In this document: in pieces, positions 2,471 through 21,640 of the stretch
How the letters are laid out: every line of letters starts with the position of its first letter
Position numbering within the stretch: the first letter of the stretch is position 1
Source of the DNA: Nitrospinales bacterium
GTDB taxonomy: Bacteria; Nitrospinota_A; UBA7883; JACRGQ01
Reading direction: 5' to 3'
DNA: 64,000 nucleotides
NCBI GenBank assembly: GCA_023248495.1
Contig: JAHFEK010000007.1
Coordinates: 4,770 to 68,769, forward strand
Position numbers and translations under genes: made by a program
Notes under the pieces: generated by a model
Seen by the model: only the letters and a program-made list of their open reading frames with translations
Databases searched by the model: none
Told to the model about the DNA's origin: nothing

Positions 2471-3828
2471 TTGCCCACGCAGAATTCGTCAAAGATTGCG
2501 GAAAGCACCTCTTCGGTATACGACTCGCCGGTGAAGCGCTTTATCTCCTCCAGCGCGTCCCACACGCTGGCGGCGGCCAGCTCGCGCCCCAACTCAACTT
2601 CAGCGGCGGCGCGGCGCAGGTCCTCGGCAATGCGGCAAAATATTTCGCGGTGGCGAAGCCGCGTCACCACCGGTTCTTCGCTGTTGAGGTTTTCCGCGTC
2701 ATGCGCGAAGGCCGCTATTTTTTTCAGGAGCGGATCAAGTCCGCGCATCTCTTTTACGGAGATATGCACCGGTGAAATCGCCGCGTCGGGCCAGGCGATC
2801 CGTTGCGGCATATCGGCTTTGTTTATCACCGCCAGATGGAGCCGCGCCTTTTTTAGCGTTTCAAGAACGGTTGTATCGCTTTTCTCCCATGGACGCGAGC
2901 CATCGAAGAGACCGATAACCGCGTCGGCCGTTTCGGCGGCCTTCAACGCGCGGCGAATTCCTTCCGCCTCCACCTCATCCGGCGATGGATTCAGCCCCGC
3001 CGTGTCTATCAGCTCCACTTTCAGTCCGGACAGCTCCCCTTCGGCGCGGATGAGGTCGCGCGTGGTGCCGGGGATGCCGGAAACGATTGCCCGTTCCTCC
3101 TCAAGCAGCGCGTTGAGCAACGACGATTTACCGGCGTTCGGTTTGCCGATAATGGCGAGCGAAAGGCCGTGCTTCAAGAATTTGCCGCCGTCGTAGCTCT
3201 TTATCAAAACATCCAGCCGCCGCGCAGCCTCGGTCAGCGTCCGGCGCAGTTCGCCATCGGCGGCAGTGACGAATTCCTCATCGGGAAAATCGATGGAGGC
3301 TTCCAGATGCGAAAGCGTCCACACCAGCTTTTGGCGCACCGCCTCGATCCGCCGGGAAAGTCCTCCCTCCATCAGGCCAAAGGCGGCGCGCGCCGCCCCC
3401 TCGCTGCGGGCCTTGATAAGGTCTATCACCCCTTCAGCTTGGCTGAGGTCGATGCGGCCGCTCAAAAACGCACGTTTGGTGAATTCGCCCGGCTCGGCCA
3501 TTCGCGCGCCGGCGTTTAGCAGCGCATTTACCGCACGGCGCAGCACGGCGGGCGATCCGTGGCAACTTATCTCCACCATGTCCTGCCGGGTGTAGCTGCG
3601 CGGCGATTGCATGTAGACCACGCAGACTTCGTCCACCGGTCCCGCGGAGCCGCACAACGTGCCAAAGTAAAGCCGGTGTGATTCAAGCGGATCGCCGGGC
3701 TTTCCGCCTTTGCGGCAGAAAAGCTGAGCGGCGATACGGTGTGCATCAAAACCCGAAACGCGAATAACGCCAAGTCCCCCCTCGCCAACGGGGGTGGCGA
3801 TAGCGGCGATGGTATCGTCAAGAATCAT
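2467..3828 (-). CDS. mnmE: tRNA modification GTPase MnmE (TrmE)
   Basis: DTIAAIATP, GEFTKRAF, GKPNAGKSSL, GTTRD, DTAG, NKAD, terminal FCVGK. Confidence 0.98.
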
Positions 3829-3900
3829 ACGCTTAATTTAGATGCGCGGCGGAACTTTGGCAAGGGAAAGGGGGATTACATGGACAATAGCGGGAAATAA

Positions 3901-3934
3901 AAAAAAGGGGGCGGTTGCCCGCCCCCTTTTAAAA
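3901..3934 (-). terminator. Intrinsic terminator of the Ala/Pro-rich lipoprotein gene
   Basis: GGGGGCGG-4 nt loop-CCGCCCCC stem followed by a T run on the minus strand. Confidence 0.8.
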
Positions 3935-3940
3935 GACGGA

Positions 3941-4201
3941 TTACTTGTGGGCCGGGGCTGCTGCGGGAGCCGGAGCTGCCGCGGGGGCCGGGGCTGCTGC
4001 GGGGGCTGCTTCCGGAGCCGGGGTTGCCGCCGGGGTTGCTTCCGGGGCCGGTGCTGCCGGAGCTGCTTCCGGGGCCGGTGCTGCCACCGGGGCCGGAGCT
4101 GCCGGGGCTTCTTCCTTCTTTTCGCAAGCCGGAAGAATCGCGAGGGATCCCGCGAACAATACTGCTACCGCCAAGAGGCCAAACTTTTTAAACATATTCA
4201 T
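3941..4201 (-). CDS. Small Ala/Pro/Glu-rich repeat lipoprotein
   Basis: Signal peptide with ILPA-C lipobox, then APAAP/APEAA repeats; AAGGA RBS, promoter and terminator present. Confidence 0.8.
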   Translation of the reverse strand: MNMFKKFGLLAVAVLFAGSLAILPACEKKEEAPAAPAPVAAPAPEAAPAAPAPEATPAATPAPEAAPAAAPAPAAAPAPAAAPAHK

Positions 4202-4292
4202 CTCTATCCTTTAAAAATTGTTGTATCCGGTCGCGTTTGCCGACACACCGCGCGTCGACGGACCAGTAATCCACATGTCCAATAAGCGCGTA

Positions 4293-4321
4293 AATCTATC
4301 ACATTTTGTTGATGGCGGCAA
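4293..4321 (-). promoter_or_regulatory. Putative sigma70 promoter of the lipoprotein gene
   Basis: TTGCCG-N17-TAGATT on the minus strand. Confidence 0.45.
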
Positions 4322-4652
4322 CAACTTTGGCGGTAATTGTTGGCAATAACATTAAGGTGGTTTGGGGAGTGGCGATGAGTGTCTGATTATTTCGGGGCTT
4401 TTGGGGGAAACGGGCATCTTTTCCTAAACGTTATCAACGACCCTCCGGTTATTTTTTCACGCCCTTTAATAGGGGGCACCTGTCGCGGATCAAACAATCT
4501 TTTGAGTGTACGTTTCCCGTCACACTTTTAATAATGCCGCTGGTTTTCACAACCATATGCCGAAAAAAAACAGGCAAGCCAACAGCCACACGGCATCCAC
4601 GCCAATCATATCGCCGTAAAATTTCGCGGCGAAATAAATTTTTTGTTCCCGC

Positions 4653-4681
4653 TTGATTTCTACGATTGCATCGTCTATAAA
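4653..4681 (+). promoter_or_regulatory. Putative sigma70 promoter of the sfrBA-nuo operon
   Basis: TTGATT-N17-TATAAA, with an ACGAT-N3-ATCGT palindrome in the spacer. Confidence 0.6.
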
Positions 4682-4875
4682 AGGCGGGCGTGCTTGGAGG
4701 CAAGCCGCGTTGCAGGGGGACAGTTTCTTTAGACTGTAAGATGCAGGAGAGGACAGCGCGTCATGTGGGGAAGCATCATGTCGAGCCTTATCGGTTCTTG
4801 CGCGTTTATCCGCGCTGAAGCGGAAACTCCGCCTTCACGCCATGAAGCCCGGCTTTCCGCTATTGGGGCGGCTCA

Positions 4876-6882
4876 ATGAAGGTACTTTTCAGCTCTTGGC
4901 AGGATGTTATCGTCGATAACCGCGGCAAGCCGCGCGACGCATGGGACGATGCCAAGGTAAAACTTCCCGAAACATACGATGGCGCGCGGAAAATGACCGC
5001 ATTCATGGGCTGGGGCGGCGTTGTCATCCTGGACGAGCCGTTCGATATTGTGGAAATGGCCGCCAATTACGTCAAAGCGCTCCAGAAGAGCTCCTGCGCC
5101 AAGTGTTTCCCCTGCCGGGTCGGCACGAAAGTAATGGAAGATATTTTTGCCCGCATCGTTGCTGGAAAGGGAACGGCGGGAGATCTCGCCCAGCTTGAAG
5201 GGCTATGCGAAACCATTTCACGCAATTCCAAGTGCGGCATCGGCCAACTGGGACCAGGCCCCATCGTAGATTCCTTCAAATACTTTAAGAAGGAATATCA
5301 AGAGTACGTTCTTGGCAAGAAGAGGGGGCCGGGCTATTTCTATCCGAATAAGACTACCGCTCCCTGCACGGCGGCCTGCCCCACCGGCATGGATATTCCT
5401 CTTTATATAGAGCAAATTAAGGAGGGGGATTTCGCCGGATCGCTGGCCACCATCCGCACGGCCAGCCCGATGGCGTGCTCGCTGGGCCGCGCCTGCTTCC
5501 ACCCTTGCGAAAATAACTGCCGCCGTGAAAATGTGGAGCGGTCGCTGGCGATCTGCAAGCTTAAGCGTTTCGCCTGGGATTACGAAGATCTGCACGCGGT
5601 CGACAAGCCGGGCAATCCGAACCGGCACACCCGGCCTGAAAAGGCGGCCGTGATAGGCGCGGGTCCTTCGGGCCTTTCCGCCGCGTATTATCTGCTGTTG
5701 CAGGGCTTTCATGTCACCATATTTGAAAAGTTGCCGACGCCCGGCGGCGCGGCGTGGACCGGCATCCCGCATTACCGCATCCCGAAGGATGTCATGATGC
5801 GCGAGGTTAAATATATTGAAGACCTCGGCGGCGAGATCAAATACAACGTCCATTTCGGCAAGGATGAAACCTTTGCCTCGCTCCGCGCCAAGGGTTTTAA
5901 GGCTTTTTTTGTCGCCACCGGCGGCGATCTTTCCAAGGCGATGGGCGTGGAGGGGGAGGACAAGAACTATCAGGGGGTTTACGGCGGTATCGCCGCCCTC
6001 AAGGAAATAGTCGATTTCACCATCAAGGATGCCGTCCCGAATGCGTCCGCTAAAATTCCCACGCTGGCCAAGCCGAAAAAGGTGTTGGTGGTTGGCGGCG
6101 GCAACACGGCGATGGACTGCGTGCGGAGCTGGATCCGCCTCGGTTGCAAGGATGTGAATATCGTTTATCGCCGCACCAAAAAGGAACTGCCGGCCGATCC
6201 GCACGAAGTGCACGAGTCTGAAGACGAAGGGGTAAACTACTGTTTTATGCTGGCCCCCACCAAGCTGGTGGCGGACGGCAGCGGCAAGGTTGTCGGCCTC
6301 GAATGCCAGAAGATGGAAATGGGTCCTCCGGACGAATCGGGCCGCCGCAAGCCGGTGCCGGTGCCGGGTTCCGAACATCTGGTCGAGGGGGATATGGTCA
6401 TCTCCGCGATTGGGCAGGACTGCGACATTTTCTTCCTCAAGGAAGTGCCGGACGTGAAAACCACAAAGTGGAAGACGATCATCACCAATGAAGAGACTTT
6501 TCAGACCGCCGTGCCGGACATCTTTGCCGGCGGAGATGTGGTATCGGGACCGCTGAATTTGGTGACGGCCGTCGGCCATGCACGCCGTGCGGCCCAGAGC
6601 ATGGGGCAGTTTCTGCGGGGTGAAACCGTTGGCATTAGCGACGAACAGCGGATGGAGAAGGTTATCGCCACTATTGGCGTGTACGACAAAAACGAAAAAG
6701 TGCCGATGCCGGGCGGTTGGCCGCGGCAGGAAATGCCGATCTGCGACCGGCAGGATAAAATCGGTTCCTTTAAAGAAGTGGAATTGGGTTACTCGCTGGA
6801 GGCGGCGGTTGATGAGGCCGGCCGCTGCATGCGTTGTTATGTGGTAGGTATGGCATGCGTGCCGGAGGGAGCGTCCAAATGA
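4876..6882 (+). CDS. sfrB: SfrB-like NAD(P)H oxidoreductase beta subunit (NuoF-type 4Fe-4S domain + GltD-like FAD/FeS domain)
   Basis: N-terminus MKVLFSSW..IVDNR and AFMGWGG resemble Geobacter SfrB as I recall it; SCAKCFPCRVG..KC cluster; CTAACP/CFHPCENNCRR; GAGPSG and GGGNTAMD dinucleotide motifs; terminal RCMRC. Confidence 0.85.
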   Translation: MKVLFSSWQDVIVDNRGKPRDAWDDAKVKLPETYDGARKMTAFMGWGGVVILDEPFDIVEMAANYVKALQKSSCAKCFPCRVGTKVMEDIFARIVAGKGTAGDLAQLEGLCETISRNSKCGIGQLGPGPIVDSFKYFKKEYQEYVLGKKRGPGYFYPNKTTAPCTAACPTGMDIPLYIEQIKEGDFAGSLATIRTASPMACSLGRACFHPCENNCRRENVERSLAICKLKRFAWDYEDLHAVDKPGNPNRHTRPEKAAVIGAGPSGLSAAYYLLLQGFHVTIFEKLPTPGGAAWTGIPHYRIPKDVMMREVKYIEDLGGEIKYNVHFGKDETFASLRAKGFKAFFVATGGDLSKAMGVEGEDKNYQGVYGGIAALKEIVDFTIKDAVPNASAKIPTLAKPKKVLVVGGGNTAMDCVRSWIRLGCKDVNIVYRRTKKELPADPHEVHESEDEGVNYCFMLAPTKLVADGSGKVVGLECQKMEMGPPDESGRRKPVPVPGSEHLVEGDMVISAIGQDCDIFFLKEVPDVKTTKWKTIITNEETFQTAVPDIFAGGDVVSGPLNLVTAVGHARRAAQSMGQFLRGETVGISDEQRMEKVIATIGVYDKNEKVPMPGGWPRQEMPICDRQDKIGSFKEVELGYSLEAAVDEAGRCMRCYVVGMACVPEGASK

Positions 6883-9455
6883 GCCACGCCGCCGCCGATA
6901 CGAAGACAACCATTACCTTGACCATCGACGGCCAGACCGTCGAGGTGAAAAACGGAACGACCATATTGCAGGCGGCGCGCCGCGTGGGCAAAAAAATACC
7001 GACGCTCTGCTATCTGGAAAAAACCCACCCCATCGGTTCCTGCCGCGTTTGTTCCGTGGAAGTGGCGGGAGTCGACGGCCCGGTGATGAGCTGCAACACG
7101 CCGGCGTCCGATGGCATGGCCATTACCACCGACAGCGAACAGCTGAGGGAATTCCGCCGGAACATGATTCAGTTTATCCTGGTGAACCACCCGCTCGATT
7201 GCCCGGTGTGCGAGCGTTCCGGCGAATGCACATTGCAGAATCTCACATGGCAGATGGGCATCAAAAAGCACGATTGGAGCACCGCGGCCCACGAGAAAAA
7301 ACCGGTGGTCGACTGGGGCCTGATCCGGTACGACCAGAACCTTTGCGTGATGTGCGAACGCTGCGTTCATGTTTGCAACGAGGTGCAGGGAATCAACGCC
7401 TTCCGCGTGGACGGCAATGGCTATGCCGCGAAAATCAATACGCAGGACGGCAAGCCGCTTGATTGCGATTTCTGCGGCCAATGCATTTCAGTGTGCCCGG
7501 TGGGGGCGCTTTCCAGCGGCATGTATTTTTCGGGCCGCTCGTGGGAGATGAAGCGCACCGCCACTATTTGCCCGCATTGCGCCGTCGGTTGCGCGTTTGA
7601 AGTGAACACGAAGAAAGGCAAGATCGTCCGTATCACCAGCAATACCGCGCTGGGAACCAACAAGGGCAACCTCTGCGCCCGGGGCCGTTTTGGGTACGAA
7701 TTCGTGCATCAGGGCGAACGTCTTACCGCGCCGATGATTCGCCGGGGTCACGGCTTTGAGACCACCGATTGGGATACGGCGATTGCCTATGTCGCCGAGA
7801 AGCTGAACGGATACCGCGCGGCGGGGAAAAACGCCTTCGCCGGCATCGGCAGCGAACGCGCAACCAACGAAGACAACTATCTGTTCCAGAAGTTTTTCCG
7901 CAGCGCTCTTGGCTCCGGCAATATCGACAACATGGCCAACATGGCCGGTCATGATACCGCGGGCGGCCTCTTCGAGGCGTTTGGCGATTTCCCGATGACC
8001 ATATCCTTTGACGAATTGAAACAGGGCAATCTTTTCGTGTTTATCGGGCTTGATGGCAGCAATGAAAATCCGGTAGTGAGCAACCACATCCGCGAAGCAA
8101 TCCACGGGCATGGCGCCGAAGTGGCGCTGGCCTACAGCAAAGAGGCGTTCTTTCTGCCGTCACCCCGCATGAAGCTGACCTACGGCTATGCCGAACTGCA
8201 CGAATTCGTCGTGACGCTGGCGGGGGAACTGGCGGCCGCCATCAAGTCCGGCGGCGGCATTCCCGGCGGGACGGTAATCGCGGGGGATTTTGAAAAGCGC
8301 CTGGAGGCCGAACTTGGCGGCGCGCGGGCCAAGCTGGATGGCGCGTTGAACGCGCAGGCCGCCCAGCTTGCGGCCCTTATCAAGAAGAAGCAAAAGCCGG
8401 TGTTTCTCATCGGGCAGGAGGCTCAGCGCCATCCGCGGGCCAGCGCCATCGTGCGGAATATCGTAAACCTCGCCAAGATCGCCGGCGGCAAGGTAATGGT
8501 GATGCGCGAATATTGCAACTCGCGGGGGGTTAACGATATGGGCGTGGCCCCGAACGTCCTTCCCGGATACGTAAAGGAGACGCGGCAGGAGTTGAGGGCA
8601 TTCGACGACCTCTGCACTCTTATCAACAATCATGAGACCAAGGCGCTAATTATCACCGACGAGGATGTGTTGCGCCGTCACGCCGATTTTGTCAAATTCC
8701 GCGAGGCGATGGACAAGGTGGAATTCGCCGTGGTGGTGGATCAATTCTACTCGCTGACCGCCATGGCGGCCGATGTGGTGTTGCCGTCGTGCACCTCTTT
8801 CGCGAAGGAAGGCACGTTTACCAATATTGAAGGACGCATCCAGAAAATCAACCCTGCCATCGAACCGGTGGGTAATAGCCGGACGGTGTGGCGGATTTTT
8901 GCCGACATCGCCAAGGCGATGGGGCACGATTTCGGCTATCGCTCCACCGCGGACGTTCAAGCGGAAATTGCCGCCAAGGTGCCGGGATACGGGGCGATTA
9001 TCGATGGCGGCATGGCCGATTACTCCGGACTCATCAACGGTTCGCCGGCGCTTACATGGGTGGAACCGGCTTCGATGAAAAAGCCGGCCCCCGGCGAGCT
9101 GGTGTTGTTGCCCGAACACAACCTCTTCGTGATGGGCATTTACACCGATTATTGCCCATCGCTCCGCCATTTGGTCGGGAAGCATTACGCCGATTTCCAT
9201 GTGGAAGGCAAGCCGTACGTCGATATCAATCCCGCCGATGCGCAGGCACTGGGCCTCAACGCCGAGGATACGGTTCTTTTCAAATCGCCGAAGCGGGAGT
9301 GGAAAGGGCGCGTCCGCATGAGCGGCGCGGTGAAGCCGGGCTCCGTGCGCATTCCCGATGAAATGGATCAGTCGCCATCCGTTATAATGACGGCGGGCGG
9401 CCGCGAGATACAATGCCACAATCTGTTGGGGCTGATGGGGAAGGAAAAATGCTAA
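6879..9455 (+). CDS. sfrA: SfrA/NuoG-like FeS subunit (2Fe-2S, 4Fe-4S, molybdopterin-fold domain without a Mo ligand)
   Basis: CY..GSCRVC..SC, HPLDCPVCERSGEC, CVMCERCVHVC, CDFCGQCISVCP, CPHCAVGC..C; start set at the ATGA overlap with sfrB (GGAGG upstream). Confidence 0.8.
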   Translation: MSHAAADTKTTITLTIDGQTVEVKNGTTILQAARRVGKKIPTLCYLEKTHPIGSCRVCSVEVAGVDGPVMSCNTPASDGMAITTDSEQLREFRRNMIQFILVNHPLDCPVCERSGECTLQNLTWQMGIKKHDWSTAAHEKKPVVDWGLIRYDQNLCVMCERCVHVCNEVQGINAFRVDGNGYAAKINTQDGKPLDCDFCGQCISVCPVGALSSGMYFSGRSWEMKRTATICPHCAVGCAFEVNTKKGKIVRITSNTALGTNKGNLCARGRFGYEFVHQGERLTAPMIRRGHGFETTDWDTAIAYVAEKLNGYRAAGKNAFAGIGSERATNEDNYLFQKFFRSALGSGNIDNMANMAGHDTAGGLFEAFGDFPMTISFDELKQGNLFVFIGLDGSNENPVVSNHIREAIHGHGAEVALAYSKEAFFLPSPRMKLTYGYAELHEFVVTLAGELAAAIKSGGGIPGGTVIAGDFEKRLEAELGGARAKLDGALNAQAAQLAALIKKKQKPVFLIGQEAQRHPRASAIVRNIVNLAKIAGGKVMVMREYCNSRGVNDMGVAPNVLPGYVKETRQELRAFDDLCTLINNHETKALIITDEDVLRRHADFVKFREAMDKVEFAVVVDQFYSLTAMAADVVLPSCTSFAKEGTFTNIEGRIQKINPAIEPVGNSRTVWRIFADIAKAMGHDFGYRSTADVQAEIAAKVPGYGAIIDGGMADYSGLINGSPALTWVEPASMKKPAPGELVLLPEHNLFVMGIYTDYCPSLRHLVGKHYADFHVEGKPYVDINPADAQALGLNAEDTVLFKSPKREWKGRVRMSGAVKPGSVRIPDEMDQSPSVIMTAGGREIQCHNLLGLMGKEKC

Positions 9456-9805
9456 ACCAGTACATTCCGATACTCGTGATGACGCTGGCGGCGTGCGGCA
9501 CGGCGGCGGGCATGATAATTCTGACCTCGATCATAGGGCCCAAGAGGGAGTTCGAAGAAAAAATGGAGCCGTTTGAGTGCGGCGTGTCGCCGATCACCGA
9601 CCCGAAAAGCCGTTTCGGCGTCCGGTTCTATCTCGTCGCAATGCTCTTCATCGTGTTCGATATAGAAGCCGTTTTTCTCTTTCCGTGGGCGGCGGTGTTC
9701 CGGGAACTGGGGATGTTCGGCTTTGTTGAAATGATGGTCTTCATCCTGGTGTTGACGGTGGGGCTCGCCTATATTTGGAAGAAGGGGGCTTTGGAATGGG
9801 AGTGA
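9449..9805 (+). CDS. nuoA: NADH-quinone oxidoreductase subunit A
   Basis: PFECG, FYLVAMLFIVFDIEAVFLFPWA, WKKGALEW; start overlaps the sfrA stop. Confidence 0.96.
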   Translation: MLNQYIPILVMTLAACGTAAGMIILTSIIGPKREFEEKMEPFECGVSPITDPKSRFGVRFYLVAMLFIVFDIEAVFLFPWAAVFRELGMFGFVEMMVFILVLTVGLAYIWKKGALEWE

Positions 9806-10332
9806 CAAGGGAAGAACGCAATATCGAGGCCGCGCTGGGCGACAGCGTGATTCTCACCCAGGTTGATAAAGTCATCGGCTGGGGAAGGAAGTACTCGTTC
9901 TTCCTCTATCCGTTCATCACCGCCTGCTGCGGCATGGAATTCATGTCGGTGGCCGGTCCCCGCTACGATCTCGACCGGTTCGGCGCGGCGTTGCCGCGCT
10001 TCTCGCCACGCCAGGCGGATTTGTTGTTTGTGGTCGGCACCATCAGCCACAAACAGGCCCCGATCCTCAACAAAGTGTATAACCAGATGGCGGAGCCGAA
10101 GTGGGTTTTCGCCTTCGGCGCGTGCGTCTGCTCCGGCGGCATGTACAACAATTACTCCACGGTGCAGGGCATCGACACCATTTTGCCGGTGGATGTGTAC
10201 GTGCCGGGTTGCCCGCCCCGCCCCGAAATGGTGTTTGACGGACTTCTCAAACTGCAGGAGCTGGTCGCCAACGAGCGCTCGTCCAAGTGGCCGCGCGGCA
10301 AATCCCAATATGAGCCGAGGGTGAAACGCTGA
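9796..10332 (+). CDS. nuoB: NADH-quinone oxidoreductase subunit B
   Basis: TACCGMEFM, FSPRQADL, GACVCSGG, VPGCPPRPE. Confidence 0.97.
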   Translation: MGVTREERNIEAALGDSVILTQVDKVIGWGRKYSFFLYPFITACCGMEFMSVAGPRYDLDRFGAALPRFSPRQADLLFVVGTISHKQAPILNKVYNQMAEPKWVFAFGACVCSGGMYNNYSTVQGIDTILPVDVYVPGCPPRPEMVFDGLLKLQELVANERSSKWPRGKSQYEPRVKR

Positions 10333-10817
10333 TGGGCCGCTTGATAGATTTGTGCAAGCGGAAACTGGGCGATACCGTGCTGTCCGCGCACGAGCAGCAT
10401 GGCGATGAAACCGTCGTGATCCGCAAAGACGCGTTGCTCACCGTGCTGCGTTGGCTGCGCGACGACGATGCCATGAAATTCGATTTCATGATGGATCTGA
10501 CCGCCGTGGATTACCTCGGCACGAGGGCGCGCAGCGAACGGTTTGAAGTGGTGTACCATCTATTTTCGCTGAAGAACAACCACCGTCTCCGCGTCAAGAC
10601 GCTGGTGGCCGACGACGATCCGGTCACCGAATCCGTCGTTACCGTTTGGGTGGCGGCCAACTGGTTCGAGCGCGAGGTGTGGGACATGTACGGCATAATC
10701 TTCAAAGGCCATCCGAACATGAAGCGGATTCTCCTGTACGAGGAATTCGAAGGCCATCCGTTACGCAAGGACTACAACATCCGTAAACGTCAGCCGCTCA
10801 TCGGGCCGGAGAACTGA
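10332..10817 (+). CDS. nuoC: NADH-quinone oxidoreductase subunit C
   Basis: DLTAVDY, FEVVYHL, ANWFEREVWDMYGI, GHPLRKDY. Confidence 0.96.
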   Translation: MGRLIDLCKRKLGDTVLSAHEQHGDETVVIRKDALLTVLRWLRDDDAMKFDFMMDLTAVDYLGTRARSERFEVVYHLFSLKNNHRLRVKTLVADDDPVTESVVTVWVAANWFEREVWDMYGIIFKGHPNMKRILLYEEFEGHPLRKDYNIRKRQPLIGPEN

Positions 10818-10821
10818 AGCG

Positions 10822-12021
10822 ATGGAAAATAGACACCAGCTGGACTTAAATACGGAACTGATGGTTCTGAACATGGGGCCGTCGCATCCGGCGACCCACG
10901 GCACCGTCCGGTTTTTCATTAAGCTTGACGGCGAAAAAATCATCCATATGGAAACGGAAATCGGCTACCTCCACCGCGCATTCGAAAAGCATTGCGAAGA
11001 CGGCACGTGGAGCAAAGCGTTCCCCTATACCGACCGGCTGAACTATAACAGCGCCCCCCAAAACAACGTCGCCTATGCGTTGGCGGTGGAAAAGCTGATG
11101 GGTATGGCGGACAAGGTTCCCGCCCGCACCGTTTACATCCGAACCATCATGTGCGAACTGTCGCGGATGGCCGATCACTACACCAACCTTGGCGCGGCCA
11201 CCCTTGAATTGGGCGCGCTGACGGCATTTCTCTATTTCGTCGAAGCGCGCGAACTGACATGGGATCTTATCGAGTCGGTTTGTGGCGCGCGCCTCACTTC
11301 GAATTATGTACGTATCGGCGGGCTTGCTTCCGACCTGCCGGAAGGTTTCGCGGGAAAGGTGAAAGAAGTTTTTGCCAAGAACCGCGTGTTTTGGGATGAA
11401 TTTGACAAGTTGCTGACGAAAAATCGCATTTTCCTCGATCGTATGCGCGACACCGGGGCGATTTCGCGCGATGACGCCATCGCCTATGCTTTCACCGGGC
11501 CTTGCCTGCGCGCGGCCGGCGTTGAATACGACGTTCGCAAAGCCTCACCCTACCTTGCTTACGGCAATGTCGATTTCGATATCCCCGTCGGCACCACCGG
11601 CGACAATTTCGACCGGTACCTCGTCCGCATGGAGGAAATCCGGCAAAGCGAGCGGATTATCGAACAGTGCCTCGCCCAGATGCCCTCGGGTCCGATCAAC
11701 ATCAACGATGCGGCGGTGCGCAACCCCAGCAAGGAAGAAGTGAAATCGAACATGGCATCGATGATATTCCACTTCAAAAACACCATCGAGGGAATACAGG
11801 TTCCCAAGGGCGAAGTCTACGTTCCCACCGAGGGATCCAACGGCGAAGTTGGTTTCTACCTCGTTTCGCAAGGCGGCGGCAAGCCGTGGAAGTGCCGTGT
11901 GCGGCCCCCCTGCTTCGCCCTTACGCAGGCGATGGGGCATATGTGCAAAGGATCGTTCTTGGCGGACATCATTCCGACTTTCGACATGATTAACCTTATC
12001 GGCGGGGAGTGTGACCGCTAA
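10822..12021 (+). CDS. nuoD: NADH-quinone oxidoreductase subunit D
   Basis: NMGPSHPATHG, IGYLHRAFEK, DRLNY, RVRPP, GECDR. Confidence 0.96.
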   Translation: MENRHQLDLNTELMVLNMGPSHPATHGTVRFFIKLDGEKIIHMETEIGYLHRAFEKHCEDGTWSKAFPYTDRLNYNSAPQNNVAYALAVEKLMGMADKVPARTVYIRTIMCELSRMADHYTNLGAATLELGALTAFLYFVEARELTWDLIESVCGARLTSNYVRIGGLASDLPEGFAGKVKEVFAKNRVFWDEFDKLLTKNRIFLDRMRDTGAISRDDAIAYAFTGPCLRAAGVEYDVRKASPYLAYGNVDFDIPVGTTGDNFDRYLVRMEEIRQSERIIEQCLAQMPSGPININDAAVRNPSKEEVKSNMASMIFHFKNTIEGIQVPKGEVYVPTEGSNGEVGFYLVSQGGGKPWKCRVRPPCFALTQAMGHMCKGSFLADIIPTFDMINLIGGECDR

Positions 12022-13133
12022 TGTTTGATTACACCTATTTGCCGGCGCCGAATCTCATCCCCTCCATCGTGGAGATGATGCTGAAGATCGTATTTATTTT
12101 CTCGATGAACATGGGGGTCTTCGCCCCGTTGCTCGGCTGGGTGGAGCGAAAGCAGTCGGCCCTCATGCAGGACCGCATCGGCGCGAACCGGGCCGAGATT
12201 TTCGGCTTCACGGTGTTCGGTCTTCTGCACACGGTTACGGACGCGATCAAGCTTCTCACGAAGGAGGATTTCATTCCGCGCGGCGCCGACAGGCCGTTGC
12301 ACTACCTGGCGCCGTTTATCGCGGTGGTGCCGTCGCTTGTCGCATTTGCGGTCATACCCTTTGGCGGCAAGTACATGCTCTGGGGGCATGAAGTGAATCT
12401 GGTTATCGCCGACCTCAATGTTGGCATGTTGTATGTTTTCGCGGTGGCTTCGCTGGCTACCTATGGCGCGGTGATTGCCGGCTGGGCTTCGAATAACAGT
12501 TGGTCAATGCTGGGCAGTATGCGCGTGGGCGCGCAGATGCTTTCGTATGAAGTGGCGATGGGCCTTACCCTCGTCGGCATTTTTATGGTGTACGGCAGCT
12601 TGCAGTTGACCACCATCGGCATGGCCCAGGAAAACTTCTTCCACTGGGGCATTTTCCTCCAGCCGCTCGGCTTCATACTGTTTATCGCCTGCGCTTTGGC
12701 GGAAAACAAGCGCACGCCGTTTGATATGCCGGAAGCGGAGTCTGAACTCATCGCCGGGTATTTCACCGAATACTCCGGGCTTAAGTTCGCCATGTTTTGG
12801 ATGGCGGAATTCCTGGAAATGGTGACTATCGCCGCGGTGCTGGTGGCGCTTTTCTTCGGCGGCTGGCACATCCCGTTCATCACTCACCAAGGGCTTATCG
12901 CCGCGATGGGTTACCTGTTCGGCGCCAACTTCGGGGCGATAGCGGCCATGATTATTCATGTCGCCGTGTTTTGGCTGAAGGTCGTCGTATGGATCATGAT
13001 TCTTATGCTCATCCGCTGGTCGTTGCCGCGTTTCCGGTTCGACCAAGTGATGAAGCTTGGCTGGAAAATCGTCCTGCCGCTGGCGCTGGCGAATATTTTT
13101 ATAACGGGCCTCGTTCTTTTGGCGGTGCGGTAA
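12021..13133 (+). CDS. nuoH: NADH-quinone oxidoreductase subunit H
   Basis: ERK..ALMQDRIG, DAIKLLTKE, SYEV, RTPFDMPEAESEL, LPRFRFDQ. Confidence 0.97.
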   Translation: MFDYTYLPAPNLIPSIVEMMLKIVFIFSMNMGVFAPLLGWVERKQSALMQDRIGANRAEIFGFTVFGLLHTVTDAIKLLTKEDFIPRGADRPLHYLAPFIAVVPSLVAFAVIPFGGKYMLWGHEVNLVIADLNVGMLYVFAVASLATYGAVIAGWASNNSWSMLGSMRVGAQMLSYEVAMGLTLVGIFMVYGSLQLTTIGMAQENFFHWGIFLQPLGFILFIACALAENKRTPFDMPEAESELIAGYFTEYSGLKFAMFWMAEFLEMVTIAAVLVALFFGGWHIPFITHQGLIAAMGYLFGANFGAIAAMIIHVAVFWLKVVVWIMILMLIRWSLPRFRFDQVMKLGWKIVLPLALANIFITGLVLLAVR

Positions 13134-13708
13134 TGGTGGCGAATTATAAAAAGGTTAACCGGGGCGTGACGCTCACCTTTTGGGAGCGGATATATGTGAT
13201 GGAAGTGATGCGCGGCATCATCATTACCGGGCGCCACTTTATCCGGAACTGGGTTTCCACCATCCGGTCGTATGTCAGCGGCAATCCCGCCGATCGCGGC
13301 ATCCCGACCATCTATTACCCGGAGGAAAAGCCGCTGCTGCCGGAAGCGTACCGTGGCCGCCCCATGCTGGTGCGCGCCGTCGATGGCAAGGAAAAGTGCG
13401 TGGCATGCGGGCTGTGCGAAGTGGCCTGCCCGCCCAAGTGCATCACTATTGTGGGCGCTATGCGGCCGGATGGCACGCGGTATCCCGAAACGTATACGCT
13501 TGACGGGGCGGTCTGCATTTTCTGCGGGCTGTGCGAAGAGGCCTGTCCGGAAGAAGCGATTGTGATGAGCCCCAACTATGAAGGGCTGGCGGAATATGAC
13601 CGCGGCCTGATGCTCTACGACAAAGAAGCGCTGCTCGTGCCCGAAGAGAAACTCCAAGGACGGCTGGATTACATTCGGCGGAGGATGTTCAACAAATGCA
13701 ACTACTGA
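13133..13708 (+). CDS. nuoI: NADH-quinone oxidoreductase subunit I
   Basis: YPEEK, CVACGLCEVACP and CIFCGLCEEACP; start at the TAATG overlap. Confidence 0.95.
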   Translation: MVANYKKVNRGVTLTFWERIYVMEVMRGIIITGRHFIRNWVSTIRSYVSGNPADRGIPTIYYPEEKPLLPEAYRGRPMLVRAVDGKEKCVACGLCEVACPPKCITIVGAMRPDGTRYPETYTLDGAVCIFCGLCEEACPEEAIVMSPNYEGLAEYDRGLMLYDKEALLVPEEKLQGRLDYIRRRMFNKCNY

Positions 13709-14193
13709 TTTTTTACGGGTTCGGCTTCTTTGCCCTGTTTTCGGGCATTGCGATGATTATGTCGCGCCAGCCGGTTACGTCCGCGCTTCTCATGGTGGTC
13801 AACATGTTCTGCCTGGCGGGCCTGTACGCGCAGCTCGGCGCGCACCTTATCGCCGTGCTGCAGGTGATGGTTTACGCCGGCGCCATCATGGTGTTGGTGC
13901 TTTTCGTCATCATGTTCCTGAACCTGCGCGAGAAGGCGGGCATTGTTTCGAAACACGGGGTGATGATGCAGGCGTTGGGTATCGCGGCGCTCGGCTTTGT
14001 CATCACCGCCATAATCGCGAAACTTGATATGGCGAAACTCCCCGCCGCCAAAGCGCCCGCCGCCGATTTCGGATCGGTCGCGGCGATTGGCCGTGTGTTG
14101 TTCACCGATTATCTGCTGCCGTTTGAAATAACCTCGGTTCTCCTGCTCGCGGCGATCGTGGGCGCGGTGGTTCTGGCAAAGAGGAAGGTCTGA
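13696..14193 (+). CDS. nuoJ: NADH-quinone oxidoreductase subunit J
   Basis: [31 protein letters not shown]. Confidence 0.96.
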
Positions 14194-14195
14194 CC

Positions 14196-14507
14196 ATGGA
14201 AATGCCCGTACCGTTACACCATTACCTGATCCTCTCCGGCATCCTGTTTTCCGTCGGGGTGGTTGGGGTTCTCTCCCGCCGCAACGCGATTATCATTTAC
14301 ATGTGCATTGAATTGATGCTGAACGCCGTCAATCTGACGCTGATCGCATTCTCGCGCCAGTTGGGCGATCTCAACGGGCAGTTGTTTACGTTCATGGTTA
14401 TGGCAGTGGCCGCCGCCGAGGCGGCCGTCGGCTTGGGGATCATAATTGCATTGTTCAGGAACCGCCAGTCCGTGGATGTGGACGACGTGAACCTGCTGAA
14501 AGGATGA
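14196..14507 (+). CDS. nuoK: NADH-quinone oxidoreductase subunit K
   Basis: [27 protein letters not shown]. Confidence 0.96.
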
Positions 14508-15976
14508 TGACGTTGAAAACGATAGTGTCAATAGTTCCTTTATTGGCAATTCTGGTTTCATTGCTGGCCGCATTCGGTATTTTCTTCCTGCGGAATTTAC
14601 CGAACTGGAGGGAAGGTTGCAGCATTTTGGCGGCATTGGTGAAATTTGGTTTGGTGATGTCGTTGTATCCCTTGATTAGGGATGGCTACACGATTGAGTG
14701 TCCCATTGTGGCGTTTCCGGCCGGCATTCTGCCCAATTTGTCGTTTGCCCTTCGAGTTGATGCTTTGGGATTTTTATTTGCCGGTGTCGCATCGTTCCTT
14801 TGGATTTTGACGACTCTGTACTCTATCGGCTACATGCGCACGTTGAAGGAACATGCCCAGGCCCGGTACTACGTTTGTTTTGCTCTTGCCCTCACGGGGG
14901 CTTTGGGCGTCGCCTTTTCGGCGAATTTGCTGACCTTGTTCTTGTTTTACGAGTTGATCACCGTTTCGACGTATTTATTGGTCGTTCATGAAGAAACGAC
15001 GGAAGCATATAGCGCCGGTACCAAGTACCTGACCTATTTGATGGGAACGGGCAAGCTGTTTTTCCTTCCGGCCATTATTTTTACGTATGGTTTGACGGGA
15101 ACGCTGGATTTTAAATCGGCCGGGATCTTTTCGGGCGTTAGCCCGTTTTGGGTGGGTTTGACCCTTATATTATTCGTGGTCGGCGTTGCCAAGGCCGGTC
15201 TCATGCCGTTCCATAATTGGTTGCCTTCGGCGATGGTGGCCCCTACCCCGGTTAGCGCGCTGTTGCACGCCGTGGCGGTTGTGAAAGCCGGCGTATTTAC
15301 CATCGTCAGAATTGTTGTGCATATTTACGGAGTTGATTTCTTAAGCACGATGGGTCTTGGCGCCTGGATGGCGCTGTTCGCTTCCATAACCGTGGTCGGC
15401 GCGTCGATTATCGCCTTGCGGCAGGACAACTTGAAGATGCGATTGGCCTATTCGACGATTTCCCAGCTATCGTATGTGGTATTGGGGGTCATGCTGTTAA
15501 GTCCCGACGGTGTCAGGGGAAGCATTCTGCAGATTGTGGCCCATGCATTTGGAAAGATCACGTTGTTTTTTTGCGCCGGGGCGATTTACGTTGGCATTCA
15601 TAAAAAGTACATAAGCGAGATGGCCGGTATTGGAAAAACGATGCCATGGACCATGGGGGCGTTTACCGTGGGCGCCTTCAGCATGATAGGGGTTCCCCCA
15701 TTGGCGGGTTTTGCCGTGAAATGGAGGCTGCTGTTGGGAGCGATGGAGGCGCATCAAATCCTGATTGTGGGGGTTTTGCTGGGAAGCACGCTGTTGAACG
15801 CGGCTTATTTCCTGCCCATTTTAAAGACGGCATATTTTGATGAATCCGCCGATGCGGCCCATCAACATGAAGCCCCCTTGATAATGAGGGTCGCCTTGAT
15901 TTCAACCGCGATAGGAACCTGTTTGGTCGGGTTGTATTCGGATTTCTTTGTAAGCTTGCTGAAGGGAATAGCGTAA
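14504..15976 (+). CDS. MrpD-family proton/cation antiporter-like subunit (extra subunit)
   Basis: About 14 TM helices; [65 protein letters not shown]; lower GC than flanking nuo genes. Confidence 0.85.
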
Positions 15977-16003
15977 CGTGGAATGCGCGGGACGGGGGAT
16001 AAA

Positions 16004-16255
16004 ATGAAGCCGGACAAACTGATTTTATCGGTGCTGGAAATGCTTAAAAAGCGGGGCATGAAATTGTTTTATATCAGCCTCGCCGCGTTGGTCGCCGTGG
16101 ACGTGTTCGTCCCGAAGACGGAACCCGAGTTTACGGGGCACACGTGGGTTGGTTTTTACGCATTTTATGGTTTCATATCATGCGTTCTGATCATTGTCAT
16201 ATCAAAGGCGCTGGGAAAATTGTTCTTGTTCAAGAAAGAAGATTTTTATGATTGA
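16004..16255 (+). CDS. Small two-TM protein of the Mrp-like module
   Basis: Two hydrophobic segments; GFYAFYGFISCV and terminal EDFYD; overlaps the next gene. Confidence 0.75.
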   Translation: MKPDKLILSVLEMLKKRGMKLFYISLAALVAVDVFVPKTEPEFTGHTWVGFYAFYGFISCVLIIVISKALGKLFLFKKEDFYD

Positions 16256-18005
16256 TTGCCTTAGTCCCGCCTGGGTTTATTTGTTGGGAGCCCTTGGCTT
16301 GCCCTTGGTGCGGAAGTATCGCGCGGCGTATCTTCTAAGCATTCCCGTTGTGGCGGGCTTGGTGTGGTTCCTGTTGCCCTTCGGGAACCATCATATGTAT
16401 GAATTCATGGGTCAGCATATTGTTATGACCCGGGTCGATAAGCTAAGCCGGCTGTTTGGGCTGGTCTTTGTAATCGCGTCCTTTTGTGGCGTTGTTTATG
16501 GCTTGCATGAAAAGGAACGGACGGGCCTCTGGATGGGGGCGTTTTTTTATGTCGGCGGCGCCATGAGTGTCGTCTTTGCCGGGGATTTGATAACCCTTTT
16601 CATTTTTTCCGAGGTTATGGCATTCTCATCCCTCCTGTTGATCAGCTTCGAGAAGACGAATAGCGCGCTTAGCGCCGGTTTCCGTTATATTCTCGTGCAT
16701 ATATTCTCCGGCGTTTGCATGGTGGGCGGCATTGCGATACACGCGAGCCAAACGGGAAACGTGGCCTTTAACGGGCTGGGGGTCTCGGACTTGGGCGGTC
16801 AATTGGTATTGATCGGCTTTTTGGTGAATGCGGCGGTTCCCCCGCTGTCGGCGTGGCTTTCCGACGCCTATCCCGAAGCAACGATCGTCGGAGCCGTATT
16901 CTGTTCCGCTTTCACCACAAAAACCGCCGTTTACTGCCTGATGCGCGGATATGCCGGCACCGACATCCTGATCTGGATGGGCGTTATCATGGCTCTTTAT
17001 GGCGTTGTTTACGCAGTTTTGGAAAACGACATTCGCCGCCTCTTGTCGTACCACATCATCAGCCAAGTGGGTTACATGGTCGCCGGCGTGGGAATGGGCA
17101 CCGAAATGGCGCTCAACGGATCGGGCGCCCATGCGTTCACCCACATTTTGTACAAGGGTTTGTTGTTCATGGGAACCGGCGCGGTCATCCATGTTACCGG
17201 CAAGAGGAAGCTGACCGAACTGGGCGGGGTTTATAAATTCATGCCCATAACAATGACGCTGTACATGATCGGCGGATTTTCGATCTCCGCGTTCCCCTTG
17301 TTCAGCGGTTTTGTCAGCAAGTCGATGGTCGTGGCCGCGGCCGAGCACGCGCATTTGCTGCCCGTCTATCTGCTGCTGACCTTGGCCTCCGCCGGTACGT
17401 TCCTGCATACCGGGTTAAAGCTCCCCTTCTACACGTTCTTCTATCAAGACTGGCGCGGCGAGCATTTGAAGGAAGCTCCCACCAACATGCTGGTTGCGAT
17501 GGCCATCATGTCGGCGTTTTGCATCGGCATCGGTATGTTCCCGCAGCCCCTGTATTCGTTGCTGCCCCACCCGGTTCATTTTGAGCCGTACTCCGCCTGG
17601 CACGTCGTCAGCTCCCTTCAGGTGTTGATGTTTACGGGGCTTGGATTTTATGTATTGCTGAAAATGCTCACCCCGGATGTTGGCGTCAGCATGGACACCG
17701 AATGGTTTTACCGCAAGGGAGGCTATTTTATCGGCCGTCAAGTCACTTCGGGGATTGTGTATTTGGATTCATTGACGAATAACTTTTACCTGCGCGGCTT
17801 TACCGCGGTTAAGTGGATTTCCAAAATGAGCCATTGGGTGGATGCCAACATCGTCGACAAGGTCGTAAACGATGTGGCAAAGTTCTTTATGGCGCTGAGC
17901 GAATATGCCCGGCGTATGCAGCCCGGTTTGGTGCGCAGCTACGCCTTTACCATGGCGCTTGCGTTTGTTCTGTTGGCCGGTTACTACCTGTGGGGGGGTA
18001 AATAA
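16248..18005 (+). CDS. Antiporter-like subunit in the NuoL position (Mrp D2-type body, NuoL-like C-terminal tail)
   Basis: NAAVPPLSAWLSDAYPEAT, FTTKTAVY, LLSYHIISQVGYM, HILYKGLLFM; tail IVDKVVNDVA..RRMQPGLVRSYAFTM looks like NuoL. Confidence 0.8.
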   Translation: MIDCLSPAWVYLLGALGLPLVRKYRAAYLLSIPVVAGLVWFLLPFGNHHMYEFMGQHIVMTRVDKLSRLFGLVFVIASFCGVVYGLHEKERTGLWMGAFFYVGGAMSVVFAGDLITLFIFSEVMAFSSLLLISFEKTNSALSAGFRYILVHIFSGVCMVGGIAIHASQTGNVAFNGLGVSDLGGQLVLIGFLVNAAVPPLSAWLSDAYPEATIVGAVFCSAFTTKTAVYCLMRGYAGTDILIWMGVIMALYGVVYAVLENDIRRLLSYHIISQVGYMVAGVGMGTEMALNGSGAHAFTHILYKGLLFMGTGAVIHVTGKRKLTELGGVYKFMPITMTLYMIGGFSISAFPLFSGFVSKSMVVAAAEHAHLLPVYLLLTLASAGTFLHTGLKLPFYTFFYQDWRGEHLKEAPTNMLVAMAIMSAFCIGIGMFPQPLYSLLPHPVHFEPYSAWHVVSSLQVLMFTGLGFYVLLKMLTPDVGVSMDTEWFYRKGGYFIGRQVTSGIVYLDSLTNNFYLRGFTAVKWISKMSHWVDANIVDKVVNDVAKFFMALSEYARRMQPGLVRSYAFTMALAFVLLAGYYLWGGK

Positions 18006-18007
18006 GC

Positions 18008-21006: not shown

Positions 21007-21021
21007 AATTGGCGTTCATTC

Positions 21022-21050
21022 AAAGGCCGGGTTAAACCCCGGCCTTTTTT
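21022..21050. terminator. Bidirectional intrinsic terminator between nuoN and ruvA
   Basis: AAAGGCCGGG-loop-CCCGGCCTTTTTT between convergent genes. Confidence 0.85.
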
Positions 21051-21052
21051 GT

Positions 21053-21640
21053 TTACAGCGAGAGGTGTTTAAGGGATTTTTTGAGGAGGTCGGCCAGCGA
21101 CGCGTCCGGCGATTCGGCGGTGATTTTCAGCAGCGTTTTTTCAGCGTCTTTCTTTTGATACCCCAGGTTCACCAGCGCGGCAAGGGCATCGGCAATGTTG
21201 CGTTGTGCTTCGTTCTCCGGCGCGGCGCTTATCGTGGATGGGCCGAATTTGTCCTTCAACTCCAGGATGATACGCTCGGCGGTTTTTGCGCCGACGCCGG
21301 GTATTTTTGAGAGCCTCGTCTTGTCACCGGTTACGATGGCATTCTCCAGCGCGTCCGGCCTTACTCCCGAAAGGATGGCGCAGGCCAGCCGCGGCCCGAT
21401 GCGGGTGACGGAAATCAGCTTTAGGAACATCTCCTTTTCGTCGCGGCTGGCGAAACCGTAGAGGTGCAGCGCGTCTTCACGGGCGATGGTGACGGTCGGC
21501 ATCTGGGCCGGTTCTCCCTCGCGCGGCAACGATTCGTACCCCGATAGCGTGATGAAAAGGCGGTAGCCCACGCCTCCCGCCTCGATGACGGCGTATTGCG
21601 GTTTTTTTTCCAGCAGCGTTCCGCGCAGATGGGCGATCAT
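21053..21640 (-). CDS. ruvA: Holliday junction DNA helicase subunit RuvA
   Basis: MIAHLRG, LYGF..DEKEMF, GPRLA, IPGVGAKTAERIILEL, ALVNLGY. Confidence 0.97.
   Translation of the reverse strand: MIAHLRGTLLEKKPQYAVIEAGGVGYRLFITLSGYESLPREGEPAQMPTVTIAREDALHLYGFASRDEKEMFLKLISVTRIGPRLACAILSGVRPDALENAIVTGDKTRLSKIPGVGAKTAERIILELKDKFGPSTISAAPENEAQRNIADALAALVNLGYQKKDAEKTLLKITAESPDASLADLLKKSLKHLSL

Follow-up and report, generated by a model that had tools for sequence, protein, structure and literature searches.

The SfrAB pair of Geobacter sulfurreducens is reportedly a soluble Fe(III) reductase that depends on NADPH (reduced nicotinamide adenine dinucleotide phosphate; Kaufmann and Lovley 2001; Coppi et al. 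2007). Kremp et al. 2020 tie both SfrB and SfrA to StnC, and recombinant StnC binds flavin adenine dinucleotide (FAD) and oxidises NADPH (PMC7483475). In Sulfurimonas denitrificans, NuoF of complex I is replaced by Suden_1824 (Weerakoon and Olson 2008, cited in McNichol et al. 2019, bioRxiv 10.1101/717884), a homologue of NfnB with a Tyr-Arg-Arg motif, and McNichol et al. proposed that the Sulfurimonas complex reduces NADP+ and ferredoxin via reverse electron transport (10.1101/717884). For Nitrospina and Kuenenia, Lücker et al. 2013 proposed a NUO-2 that reduces ferredoxin and has additional clusters in F and G (PMC3578206). Here we analysed a stretch of 64,000 nucleotides (hereafter the window) of a Nitrospinales bacterium (assembly GCA_023248495.1, contig JAHFEK010000007.1, positions 4,770 to 68,769), in which an sfrB-like gene and an sfrA/nuoG-like gene stand directly 5' of nuoA. 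A comparative study of Nitrospinota lists these operons as NuoA-N NADH dehydrogenase (PMC10839748). We propose, with a probability of roughly 0.6, that SfrB and the NuoG-like SfrA form the electron-input (N) module of the only complex I of this organism.

Pfam recovered the 11 core subunits A, B, C, D, H, I, J, K, L, M and N in one operon (Table 1), the L slot being filled by two antiporter-like proteins, and found neither nuoE nor nuoF in it. The TGA of sfrB (6880-6882) overlaps the ATG of sfrA (6879) as ATGA, the TAA of sfrA (9453-9455) overlaps the ATG of nuoA (9449) as ATGCTAA, and a Shine-Dalgarno sequence, GGAAGGA, lies 5 nt 5' of the nuoA ATG. An earlier sequence-only reading of this DNA had noted both overlaps and the lack of nuoE and nuoF; the re-read coordinates and Pfam agree with it. 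Lengths called in relatives match the 118 aa of NuoA and the 858 aa of SfrA. Overlapping stop and start codons are common in operons. The arrangement was followed in 33 genomes (species) of the GTDB phylum. Exactly one copy of nuoA was found in 32 of these, the assembly of the exception being without the operon. An SfrB orthologue of 60-95% identity, encoded by a cassette 5' of nuoA, was present in 23 of the 33, counted at 62% identity or more, and the order sfrB-G-nuoA..N was seen in all 18 loci read with enough flank to show nuo genes (some of these loci share a genome), with G identity down to 37%. SfrA homologues of 90% down to 38% identity had the order sfrB-sfrA-nuoABCDHIJK...N on every contig of sufficient length, several of them from sources labelled Nitrospinae or Nitrospinota. 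Class-wide identity of SfrB (60-66%) was close to that of NuoD (64-69%). The sfrB-sfrA-nuoA arrangement is put beyond chance by the same gene order recurring in over 20 independent assemblies while SfrA identity falls to 37-42%. The gene order thus supports the view that SfrBA is not an accidental neighbour of the nuo genes, and the predicted wiring of SfrBA to complex I is well supported by comparative evidence.

SfrA is predicted to be the NuoG of this complex I, the replaced part being NuoE and NuoF only. The protein carries ligands for N1b (C44/55/58/72), N5 (H104, C108/111/117), N4 and an extra [4Fe-4S] cluster (C156/159/162/166 and C196/199/202/206, the extra one being a second CxxCxxCxxxCP motif) and N7 (C231/234/238/266), and all 20 of these iron-sulphur (Fe-S) ligands are invariant in 20 sequences. 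Its best NCBIfam match was NuoG TIGR01973 (437 bits, the cut-off being 470), while Fdh-alpha scored 296 bits. The claim of the sequence-only reading that the pair stands in place of NuoEFG therefore holds for E and F, which SfrB replaces, and fails for G, which is not replaced, SfrA keeping all NuoG ligands. The same reading had given SfrA NuoG-like clusters and no catalytic Cys of formate dehydrogenases, in agreement with the ligand map and with the following alignment. NIDNMANMAGH lies at residues 348-358, and Ala356-Gly357 aligns with Cys386-His387 (...RVCHS...) of Rhodobacter capsulatus FdsA (6tg9_A), which we take to be its pair for liganding molybdenum (Mo); Cys was found at the 356 column in none of 20 aligned relatives. 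SfrA has no Cys or selenocysteine (Sec) Mo ligand with an adjacent His, and formate dehydrogenase identity was therefore rejected. As a separate observation, the SfrA homologue is split into two open reading frames (ORFs) near residue 355 at eight loci, where it is preceded by a NuoF-like gene; such a split is the pattern expected of NAD-dependent formate dehydrogenases with an in-frame Sec TGA, which these possibly are if the presumed identity of the stop codon holds.

SfrB is a chimera of the C-terminal N3 domain of NuoF and a FAD/NADPH module of the NfnB/GltD type. Its Pfam matches are NADH_4Fe-4S (60-143), Fer4_20 (161-238) and Pyr_redox_2 (257-569). Residues 24-153 match the C-terminal four-helix domain that bears N3 in NuoF, HydB and HoxF, aligning to Thermus thermophilus Nqo1 302-426 and to StnB/HoxF 398-517, and C74, C77, C80 and C120 supply the canonical CxxCxxC...C ligands. 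Residues 161-655 align to the GltD/NfnB fold (two [4Fe-4S], FAD site, NADPH site); the Cys pattern 164/168/201/207/211/215/227 is conserved, and the FAD/NAD(P)H features comprise GAGPSG (261-266), Arg301, GGGNTAMD (407-414) and YRRT (431-434). Pfam and the residues thus bear out what had been read earlier, namely a NuoF-type 4Fe-4S domain and a GltD-like flavin domain with GGGNTAMD..YRRT. The top PDB matches were the StnC-type chains 9bov_A (331 bits) and 8oh5_C (290 bits), followed by NfnB (4ylf_B, 289 bits; 5jca_L, 274 bits) and then GltD. Alignment with NfnB of Thermotoga maritima and Pyrococcus furiosus showed that Tyr-Arg-Arg and the equivalent of P. furiosus Arg201 are kept in SfrB. The N3 motif is invariant in 18 of 18 aligned rows from SfrB proteins encoded upstream of nuoA, and so are the FAD/NADPH features save for small variants (GGGIAG/GSGIAG, GAGNTAMD). 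Motifs of the NADPH type are kept in all Nuo-linked orthologues. Outside those rows, GGGNVAMD was found in one relative (L055), and GGGFTSMD with YRRD in two Campylobacterota loci, L045 (Sulfurimonadaceae) and L078 (Campylobacterales).

These features make NADP(H) specificity of SfrB likely. Some GltD-family proteins do use NADH, and the genome is without any other NADH:quinone complex I, as would suit a SfrB-G module that is wired to complex I and is NADH-specific or dual, the whole being a functionally ordinary NADH:quinone oxidoreductase with an unusual flavoprotein. We consider such an enzyme very unlikely. The Tyr-Arg-Arg of NfnB binds the 2'-phosphate of NADPH (bioRxiv 10.1101/717884; PMC7483475), that motif and GGGNTAMD are conserved in SfrB (10.1101/717884), and StnC, in which NADPH oxidation was measured, has the same domain (PMC7483475).

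The comparison of sister lineages provided the evidence on how the two proteins are joined to the core. In eight members of the class without SfrB, a PF01512 gene lies about 4 kb 5' of nuoA on the same strand, and the six loci that were read have the layout flavoprotein, G, nuoA..N (F-type). The flavoprotein of these loci has Complex1_51K, SLBB and N3 domains and a C-terminal pair of [4Fe-4S], as in the HydB/HndC type, and the same kind is carried by a Scalindua locus; the remaining Nuo subunits are 45-85% identical to those of the window. Both cassettes together were found in none of the 33 genomes of the phylum. A concatenated tree of NuoB, NuoD, NuoH, NuoM and NuoN follows family taxonomy, with SfrB-type and F-type operons interleaved; in one family (f2) the two types are sisters with 100% support, another (f8) is mixed, and no fewer than four changes of the F label are required. 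A tree of whole G subunits nests the F-linked proteins, as one clade (100% support), among SfrB-linked ones. When G was split, F-type and SfrB-type proteins of the same families were 38.6% identical over residues 1-215 and 44.7% over residues 216-858. Within the SfrB type, the corresponding values were 61-64% for the first part and, for the second, 50.2% among families other than f1 and 33.3% between f1 and the others; within the F type they were 72.9% and 43.7%, and between F-type and Scalindua G 52.2% and 33.0%. Over residues 216-858 the two types resemble each other as closely as proteins of a single type do. The tree of residues 1-215 groups the proteins by flavoprotein partner and not by taxonomy, F-type G falling with Scalindua (100/100 support), and the tree of residues 216-858 places both cassette types of the non-f1 families in one clade (100/99 support). 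A sliding window puts the change in identity at G residues ~200-230, i.e. at nucleotides ~7480-7570 of the window. The exchanged unit is therefore the flavoprotein together with the N-terminal Fe-S domain of G. The data support an exchange of cassettes on a vertically inherited nuo core, the breakpoint falling within G at about residue 215; the N-terminal part of G travels with the flavoprotein, and the rest of G is inherited with the core. In solved complex I, NuoG touches NuoF with its N-terminal part and the Q-module with its C-terminal part. We take the breakpoint pattern as the strongest available sequence evidence that SfrB docks on G and that G docks on the Nuo core.

The two genes could instead be merely co-transcribed with nuo, SfrBA being a soluble NADPH oxidoreductase of the Geobacter type and the 11-subunit complex I being fed by a diffusible carrier, e.g. 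ferredoxin. Complexes of 11 subunits without NuoEFG are known in other bacteria and in cyanobacteria. Stand-alone sfrBA pairs do exist, in a complete genome (L089, with a 34% identical homologue) and in a metagenome-assembled genome (MAG) of Desulfuromonadales (L023), and are sister to the Campylobacterota forms that occupy the EF slot. Such an uncoupled pair is nevertheless highly improbable here, as the G-like protein has lost none of the NuoG ligands, its C-terminal part evolves together with the nuo core while its N-terminal part travels with the flavoprotein, a flavin mononucleotide (FMN)-type flavoprotein with G fills the same slot in sister species, and an overlap of the translational-coupling type joins sfrA to nuoA. 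A terminator or promoter that would split sfrA from nuoA was also sought, and such a separation was rejected. The two strongest terminator-like sites in a scan of 3800-21800 were at 21022-21047 on the plus strand, the strongest such site on that strand in the operon region, and at 3930-3903 on the minus strand; hairpins in the sfrA-nuoA interval were weak only, much below these two. Promoter-like sites across the region numbered 8, against 10.6 expected by chance from shuffled sequence, and the sole one between sfrA and nuoA (9387-9414) scored 9/12. Contigs of the metatranscriptome of the source groundwater lay on sfrB, on its junction with sfrA, on sfrA itself and on nuoB-D, all at comparably low depth.

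The rest of the genome (assembly of 2.57 Mb, 88% complete) was searched for another input module. It has one copy each of nuoA, nuoC, nuoH, nuoJ and nuoK, and a group-4-hydrogenase-like cluster on contig C24 gave weak matches to NuoB, NuoD and NuoI. Only two proteins matched the FMN domain PF01512, both encoded outside the operon. One is a PduS-like flavoprotein (Complex1_51K + SLBB + Fer4 + RnfC_N) of a bacterial microcompartment (BMC) locus adjoining dnaA and gyrB (C62:71000-75800), together with an aldehyde dehydrogenase, a BMC shell protein and a class II aldolase. The other is HoxF, a NuoE-NuoF fusion encoded with hoxU, hoxY and hoxH (C74:50252-54899) in what looks like a NAD-linked bidirectional [NiFe] hydrogenase; HoxF is the only true NuoEF-like diaphorase of the genome. 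Eight SfrB-type genomes of the phylum, including ones that are 96-97% complete, had no PF01512 match at all. With both PF01512 proteins assigned otherwise, a nuoEF encoded elsewhere was rejected; the check for a second nuoEFG, suggested by the sequence-only reading, thus found nuoA once and nuoEF not at all. SfrB has four GltD/NfnB-like paralogues elsewhere in the genome (contigs C52, C19, C80 and C85), which are 33-38% identical to it; none has the N3 domain, and three of the four have C-terminal ferredoxin-like extensions.

Named genomes were scanned with the SfrA alignment and with three peptide patterns, which are generic NuoG motifs. The matches listed were mostly canonical NuoG of ~30% identity, with no close relative of SfrA among them; the loci served as outgroups and showed the layouts of Campylobacterota, Syntrophobacterales and Scalindua. 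SfrB-like proteins with the N3 domain form a single clade (98/96 support), in which the clade of the window is sister to a Syntrophobacterales form located between nuoD and nuoH, and the Campylobacterota forms and the stand-alone pairs make up the other branch. The link of SfrB-type proteins with complex I is thus old and extends over several phyla. In the phylum's one genome of another class, a GltD-like ORF fragment lies directly 5' of nuoA (G001:C92:1-5001), with no G gene between the two; it is 34% identical to SfrB residues ~228-591, the match holds three TGA codons, and the contig begins within the gene.

The complex I of Sulfurimonas and Sulfurovum resembles that of the window in having a SfrB/NfnB-like flavoprotein with Tyr-Arg-Arg in a nuo operon without NuoE and NuoF, an extra [4Fe-4S] in G, and a host from a lineage of reductive tricarboxylic acid (TCA) cycle autotrophs. 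SfrB of L045 and L078 is 34-35% identical to that of the window over 680 aa and shares the 98/96 clade. However, the Campylobacterota gene is placed between nuoD and nuoH, with two NuoG copies after it, whereas the cassette of the window is 5' of nuoA and has one G; the Campylobacterota N3 motif is CxxCxPG, the third Cys being changed to Gly as also in the stand-alone L023 and L089, whereas the window keeps the canonical NuoF motif; and the window has a four-pump arm in addition. Geobacter SfrAB has two subunits of matching size, SfrB combining N3 with a GltD-like FAD/NADPH part and SfrA combining NuoG-like Fe-S with a molybdopterin-like domain without Mo ligand, as in the window. It is a stand-alone soluble enzyme, in contrast to the pair of the window, which is joined to the nuo operon by overlapping codons, as is conserved in over 20 genomes. 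By the proxy of the Desulfuromonadales pair (L023), and not the GSU sequences, identity to the window is 41% for SfrB and 30% for SfrA; L023 and L089 belong to the same larger clade as the window and to its other subclade, whereas the sister of the window is the Nuo-embedded Syntrophobacterales form.

StnABC/NfnABC (PDB 8oh5, 9bov, 9n5u) likewise has a GltD/NfnB-like NADPH/FAD domain wired to a NuoG-like Fe-S/molybdopterin-like domain. In Stn, a single chain holds both parts, the partners are the soluble HydB/HydC-like StnAB, and there is no membrane arm or quinone, whereas SfrB and SfrA of the window are separate and stand with a membrane complex. NfnAB shares with the window the NfnB-type subunit with FAD, NADPH and two [4Fe-4S], but has in addition NfnA (PyrK-like; [2Fe-2S], FAD, NAD), for which no counterpart was found in the operon of the window. 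NUO-2 of Nitrospina gracilis, Kuenenia and Scalindua, for which reverse electron transport was proposed (PMC3578206), is another case of a complex I core fitted with an alternative N-module; its flavoprotein is NuoF/HydB-like and not GltD/NfnB-like, and so matches the F-type cassette of the sister lineages and not that of the window. A limited literature search found no description of a SfrB-type cassette in this lineage or of its swap with the FMN type. The replacement of NuoF by an NfnB-like protein has already been proposed for Sulfurimonas, and what is new is the exchange of cassettes at a point within NuoG.

In the proposed enzyme, NADP(H) would bind at the GltD/NfnB-type FAD site of SfrB, and electrons would pass from the FAD over two [4Fe-4S] to an N3-type cluster in the domain inherited from the C-terminus of NuoF. 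This domain would dock on the N-terminal Fe-S domain of G (N1b, N4, N5), from which the onward path would be ordinary, from G to NuoI, to NuoB and to the quinone site in NuoD/H. The result would be a NADPH:quinone oxidoreductase, reversible in principle; in a lineage that bears ATP-citrate lyase, the reverse mode could draw on the proton-motive force for making NADPH from quinol. Of the genomes of the phylum, 32/33 have the Citrate_bind domain of ATP-citrate lyase, against 0/14 control genomes. The genome of the window also carries heme-copper oxidase homologues and a futalosine-pathway marker, and a PntB transhydrogenase was not found in it.

The same wiring might serve flavin bifurcation or confurcation, with quinol reducing NADP+ at the SfrB FAD and also ferredoxin, driven by the proton-motive force. 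The ferredoxin route would be the branch of G with the extra [4Fe-4S] and N7, or the clusters of SfrB, and the reductive TCA cycle would receive both of its reductants from the enzyme, a role to which the Citrate_bind domain of 32/33 genomes lends weight. The extra [4Fe-4S] of G could bridge N4 and N7. The flavoprotein of the alternative cassette is of the type found in bifurcating hydrogenases. It is HydB-type, which StnB resembles, and SfrB itself is a homologue of NfnB that keeps the Arg tied by work on NfnB to the low-potential flavin (PMC7483475). For Sulfurimonas such a role was proposed before (10.1101/717884), as was the ferredoxin-reducing NUO-2 for Nitrospina and Kuenenia (PMC3578206). 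Nevertheless, an NfnA-like high-potential partner is absent from the operon, no ferredoxin gene lies in or adjoining it, in GltD this fold serves simply to conduct electrons, and sequence cannot tell a bifurcating from a non-bifurcating flavin; we therefore judge bifurcation unlikely. A fuller scheme is decidedly unlikely, in which the SfrB-G complex I would be a proton-motive-force-driven, flavin-confurcating generator of NADPH and low-potential ferredoxin for the reductive TCA cycle, the swap with the HydB cassette would tune the pair of reductants, and the four-pump arm would give each electron pair a greater driving force.

Several observations weigh against an N module made of SfrB and G. 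The nearest stand-alone relatives sampled (the Desulfuromonadales MAG and L089) are SfrA/SfrB-type pairs, and Geobacter SfrAB is reportedly soluble. In a ~95% complete genome of the window's own genus (G005), nuoA and the orthologues of SfrB and NuoD were all not found, which may reflect either a true loss or a contig left out of the bin. No metatranscriptome contig bridged the sfrA/nuoA junction at 9449. The YRR motif is common to all GltD-like paralogues of the genome and may mark a family preference rather than specificity. By our own estimate, NADPH to menaquinone, run forward, would not obviously pay for five protons. Physical docking, preference for NADPH over NADH and the physiological direction are parts of the proposal that we infer.

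By what route electrons at the level of quinol yield NADPH and reduced ferredoxin in chemolithoautotrophs with the reductive TCA cycle is a question raised for Nitrospina and Sulfurimonas, and anammox bacteria are mentioned in this connection. One complex I core with two interchangeable front ends, one with a GltD/NfnB-type FAD and the other with a HydB-type FMN, offers a clean comparative handle on it, and the existence of a NADPH-linked complex I becomes directly testable. The recombination point in NuoG would mark the flavoprotein-docking half off from the core-docking half, giving a candidate domain boundary for engineering chimeric complex I. The proposed module would also correct the annotation of these operons as plain NuoA-N NADH dehydrogenase in PMC10839748.

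Table 1. Features of the sfrBA-nuo operon and their positions in the window
Feature	Position	Strand	Remarks
sfrB-like gene	4876-6882	+	668 aa; Pfam; predicted electron-input flavoprotein in the NuoE/NuoF place
SfrB N-terminal N3 domain, aa 24-153	4945-5334	+	homologous to the C-terminal [4Fe-4S] domain of NuoF/HydB/HoxF
SfrB GltD/NfnB-type region, two [4Fe-4S], aa 161-238	5356-5589	+	Pfam Fer4_20
SfrB FAD and NAD(P)H Rossmann domains	5644-6582	+	Pfam Pyr_redox_2
sfrA/nuoG-like gene	6879-9455	+	858 aa; Pfam
SfrA N-terminal Fe-S part, aa 1-215	6879-7523	+	Pfam Fer2_4, NADH-G_4Fe-4S_3, Fer4_Nqo3
SfrA N7 and molybdopterin-like part	7524-9455	+	Pfam Molybdop_Fe4S4, Molybdopterin, Molydop_binding
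nuoA	9449-9805	+	118 aa; Pfam Oxidored_q4
nuoB	9796-10332	+	Pfam
nuoC	10332-10817	+	Pfam
nuoD	10822-12021	+	Pfam
nuoH	12021-13133	+	Pfam
nuoI	13133-13708	+	Pfam
nuoJ	13696-14193	+	Pfam and NCBIfam
nuoK	14196-14507	+	Pfam and NCBIfam
antiporter-like 1	14504-15976	+	Pfam (Proton_antipo_M) and NCBIfam
small ORF between antiporter-like 1 and 2	16004-16255	+	
antiporter-like 2, NuoL-type C-terminus	16248-18005	+	Pfam (Proton_antipo_M) and NCBIfam
nuoM	18008-19555	+	Pfam (Proton_antipo_M) and NCBIfam
nuoN	19555-21006	+	Pfam (Proton_antipo_M) and NCBIfam
terminator-like hairpin at operon end	21022-21047	+	10-bp stem, 7 GC pairs, then TTTGTTT

The nuoB start was picked to match the 178-aa NuoB of two relatives (L083, L084), that of the closest relative (L090) being 174 aa. 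In the membrane arm, the order antiporter-like 1, small ORF, antiporter-like 2 in the nuoL slot is shared with the four-pump 'green'/2M complex I (Degli Esposti and Martinez-Romero 2016; Chadwick et al. 2018, via PMC6606698), and this likeness concerns the membrane arm only. Homologues of all three are found in the nuo cluster of Phyllobacterium chamaecytisi (38-53% identity, some of them 52-53%). The cassette is also present in three relatives (L090, L125, L088), while the others have a single NuoL. The sequence-only reading had coupled the SfrB module with the four-antiporter arm; this link was rejected, most SfrB-type relatives having a normal NuoL and an ordinary NuoL-M-N arm, and the four-pump arm is independent of the SfrB module.

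An Rfam search of the whole window gave zero matches, and no sigma-70-like site was found in the ~600 nt non-coding stretch preceding sfrB. Beyond the hairpin at the end of the operon, ruvA and ruvC lie on the minus strand. On the 5' side of sfrB, a 147-aa ORF on the plus strand (3842-4285) has no Pfam match and contains a palindromic hairpin with a 12-bp stem (3903-3930); the real gene at 3842-4285 may be an 86-aa ORF on the minus strand (3941-4201).

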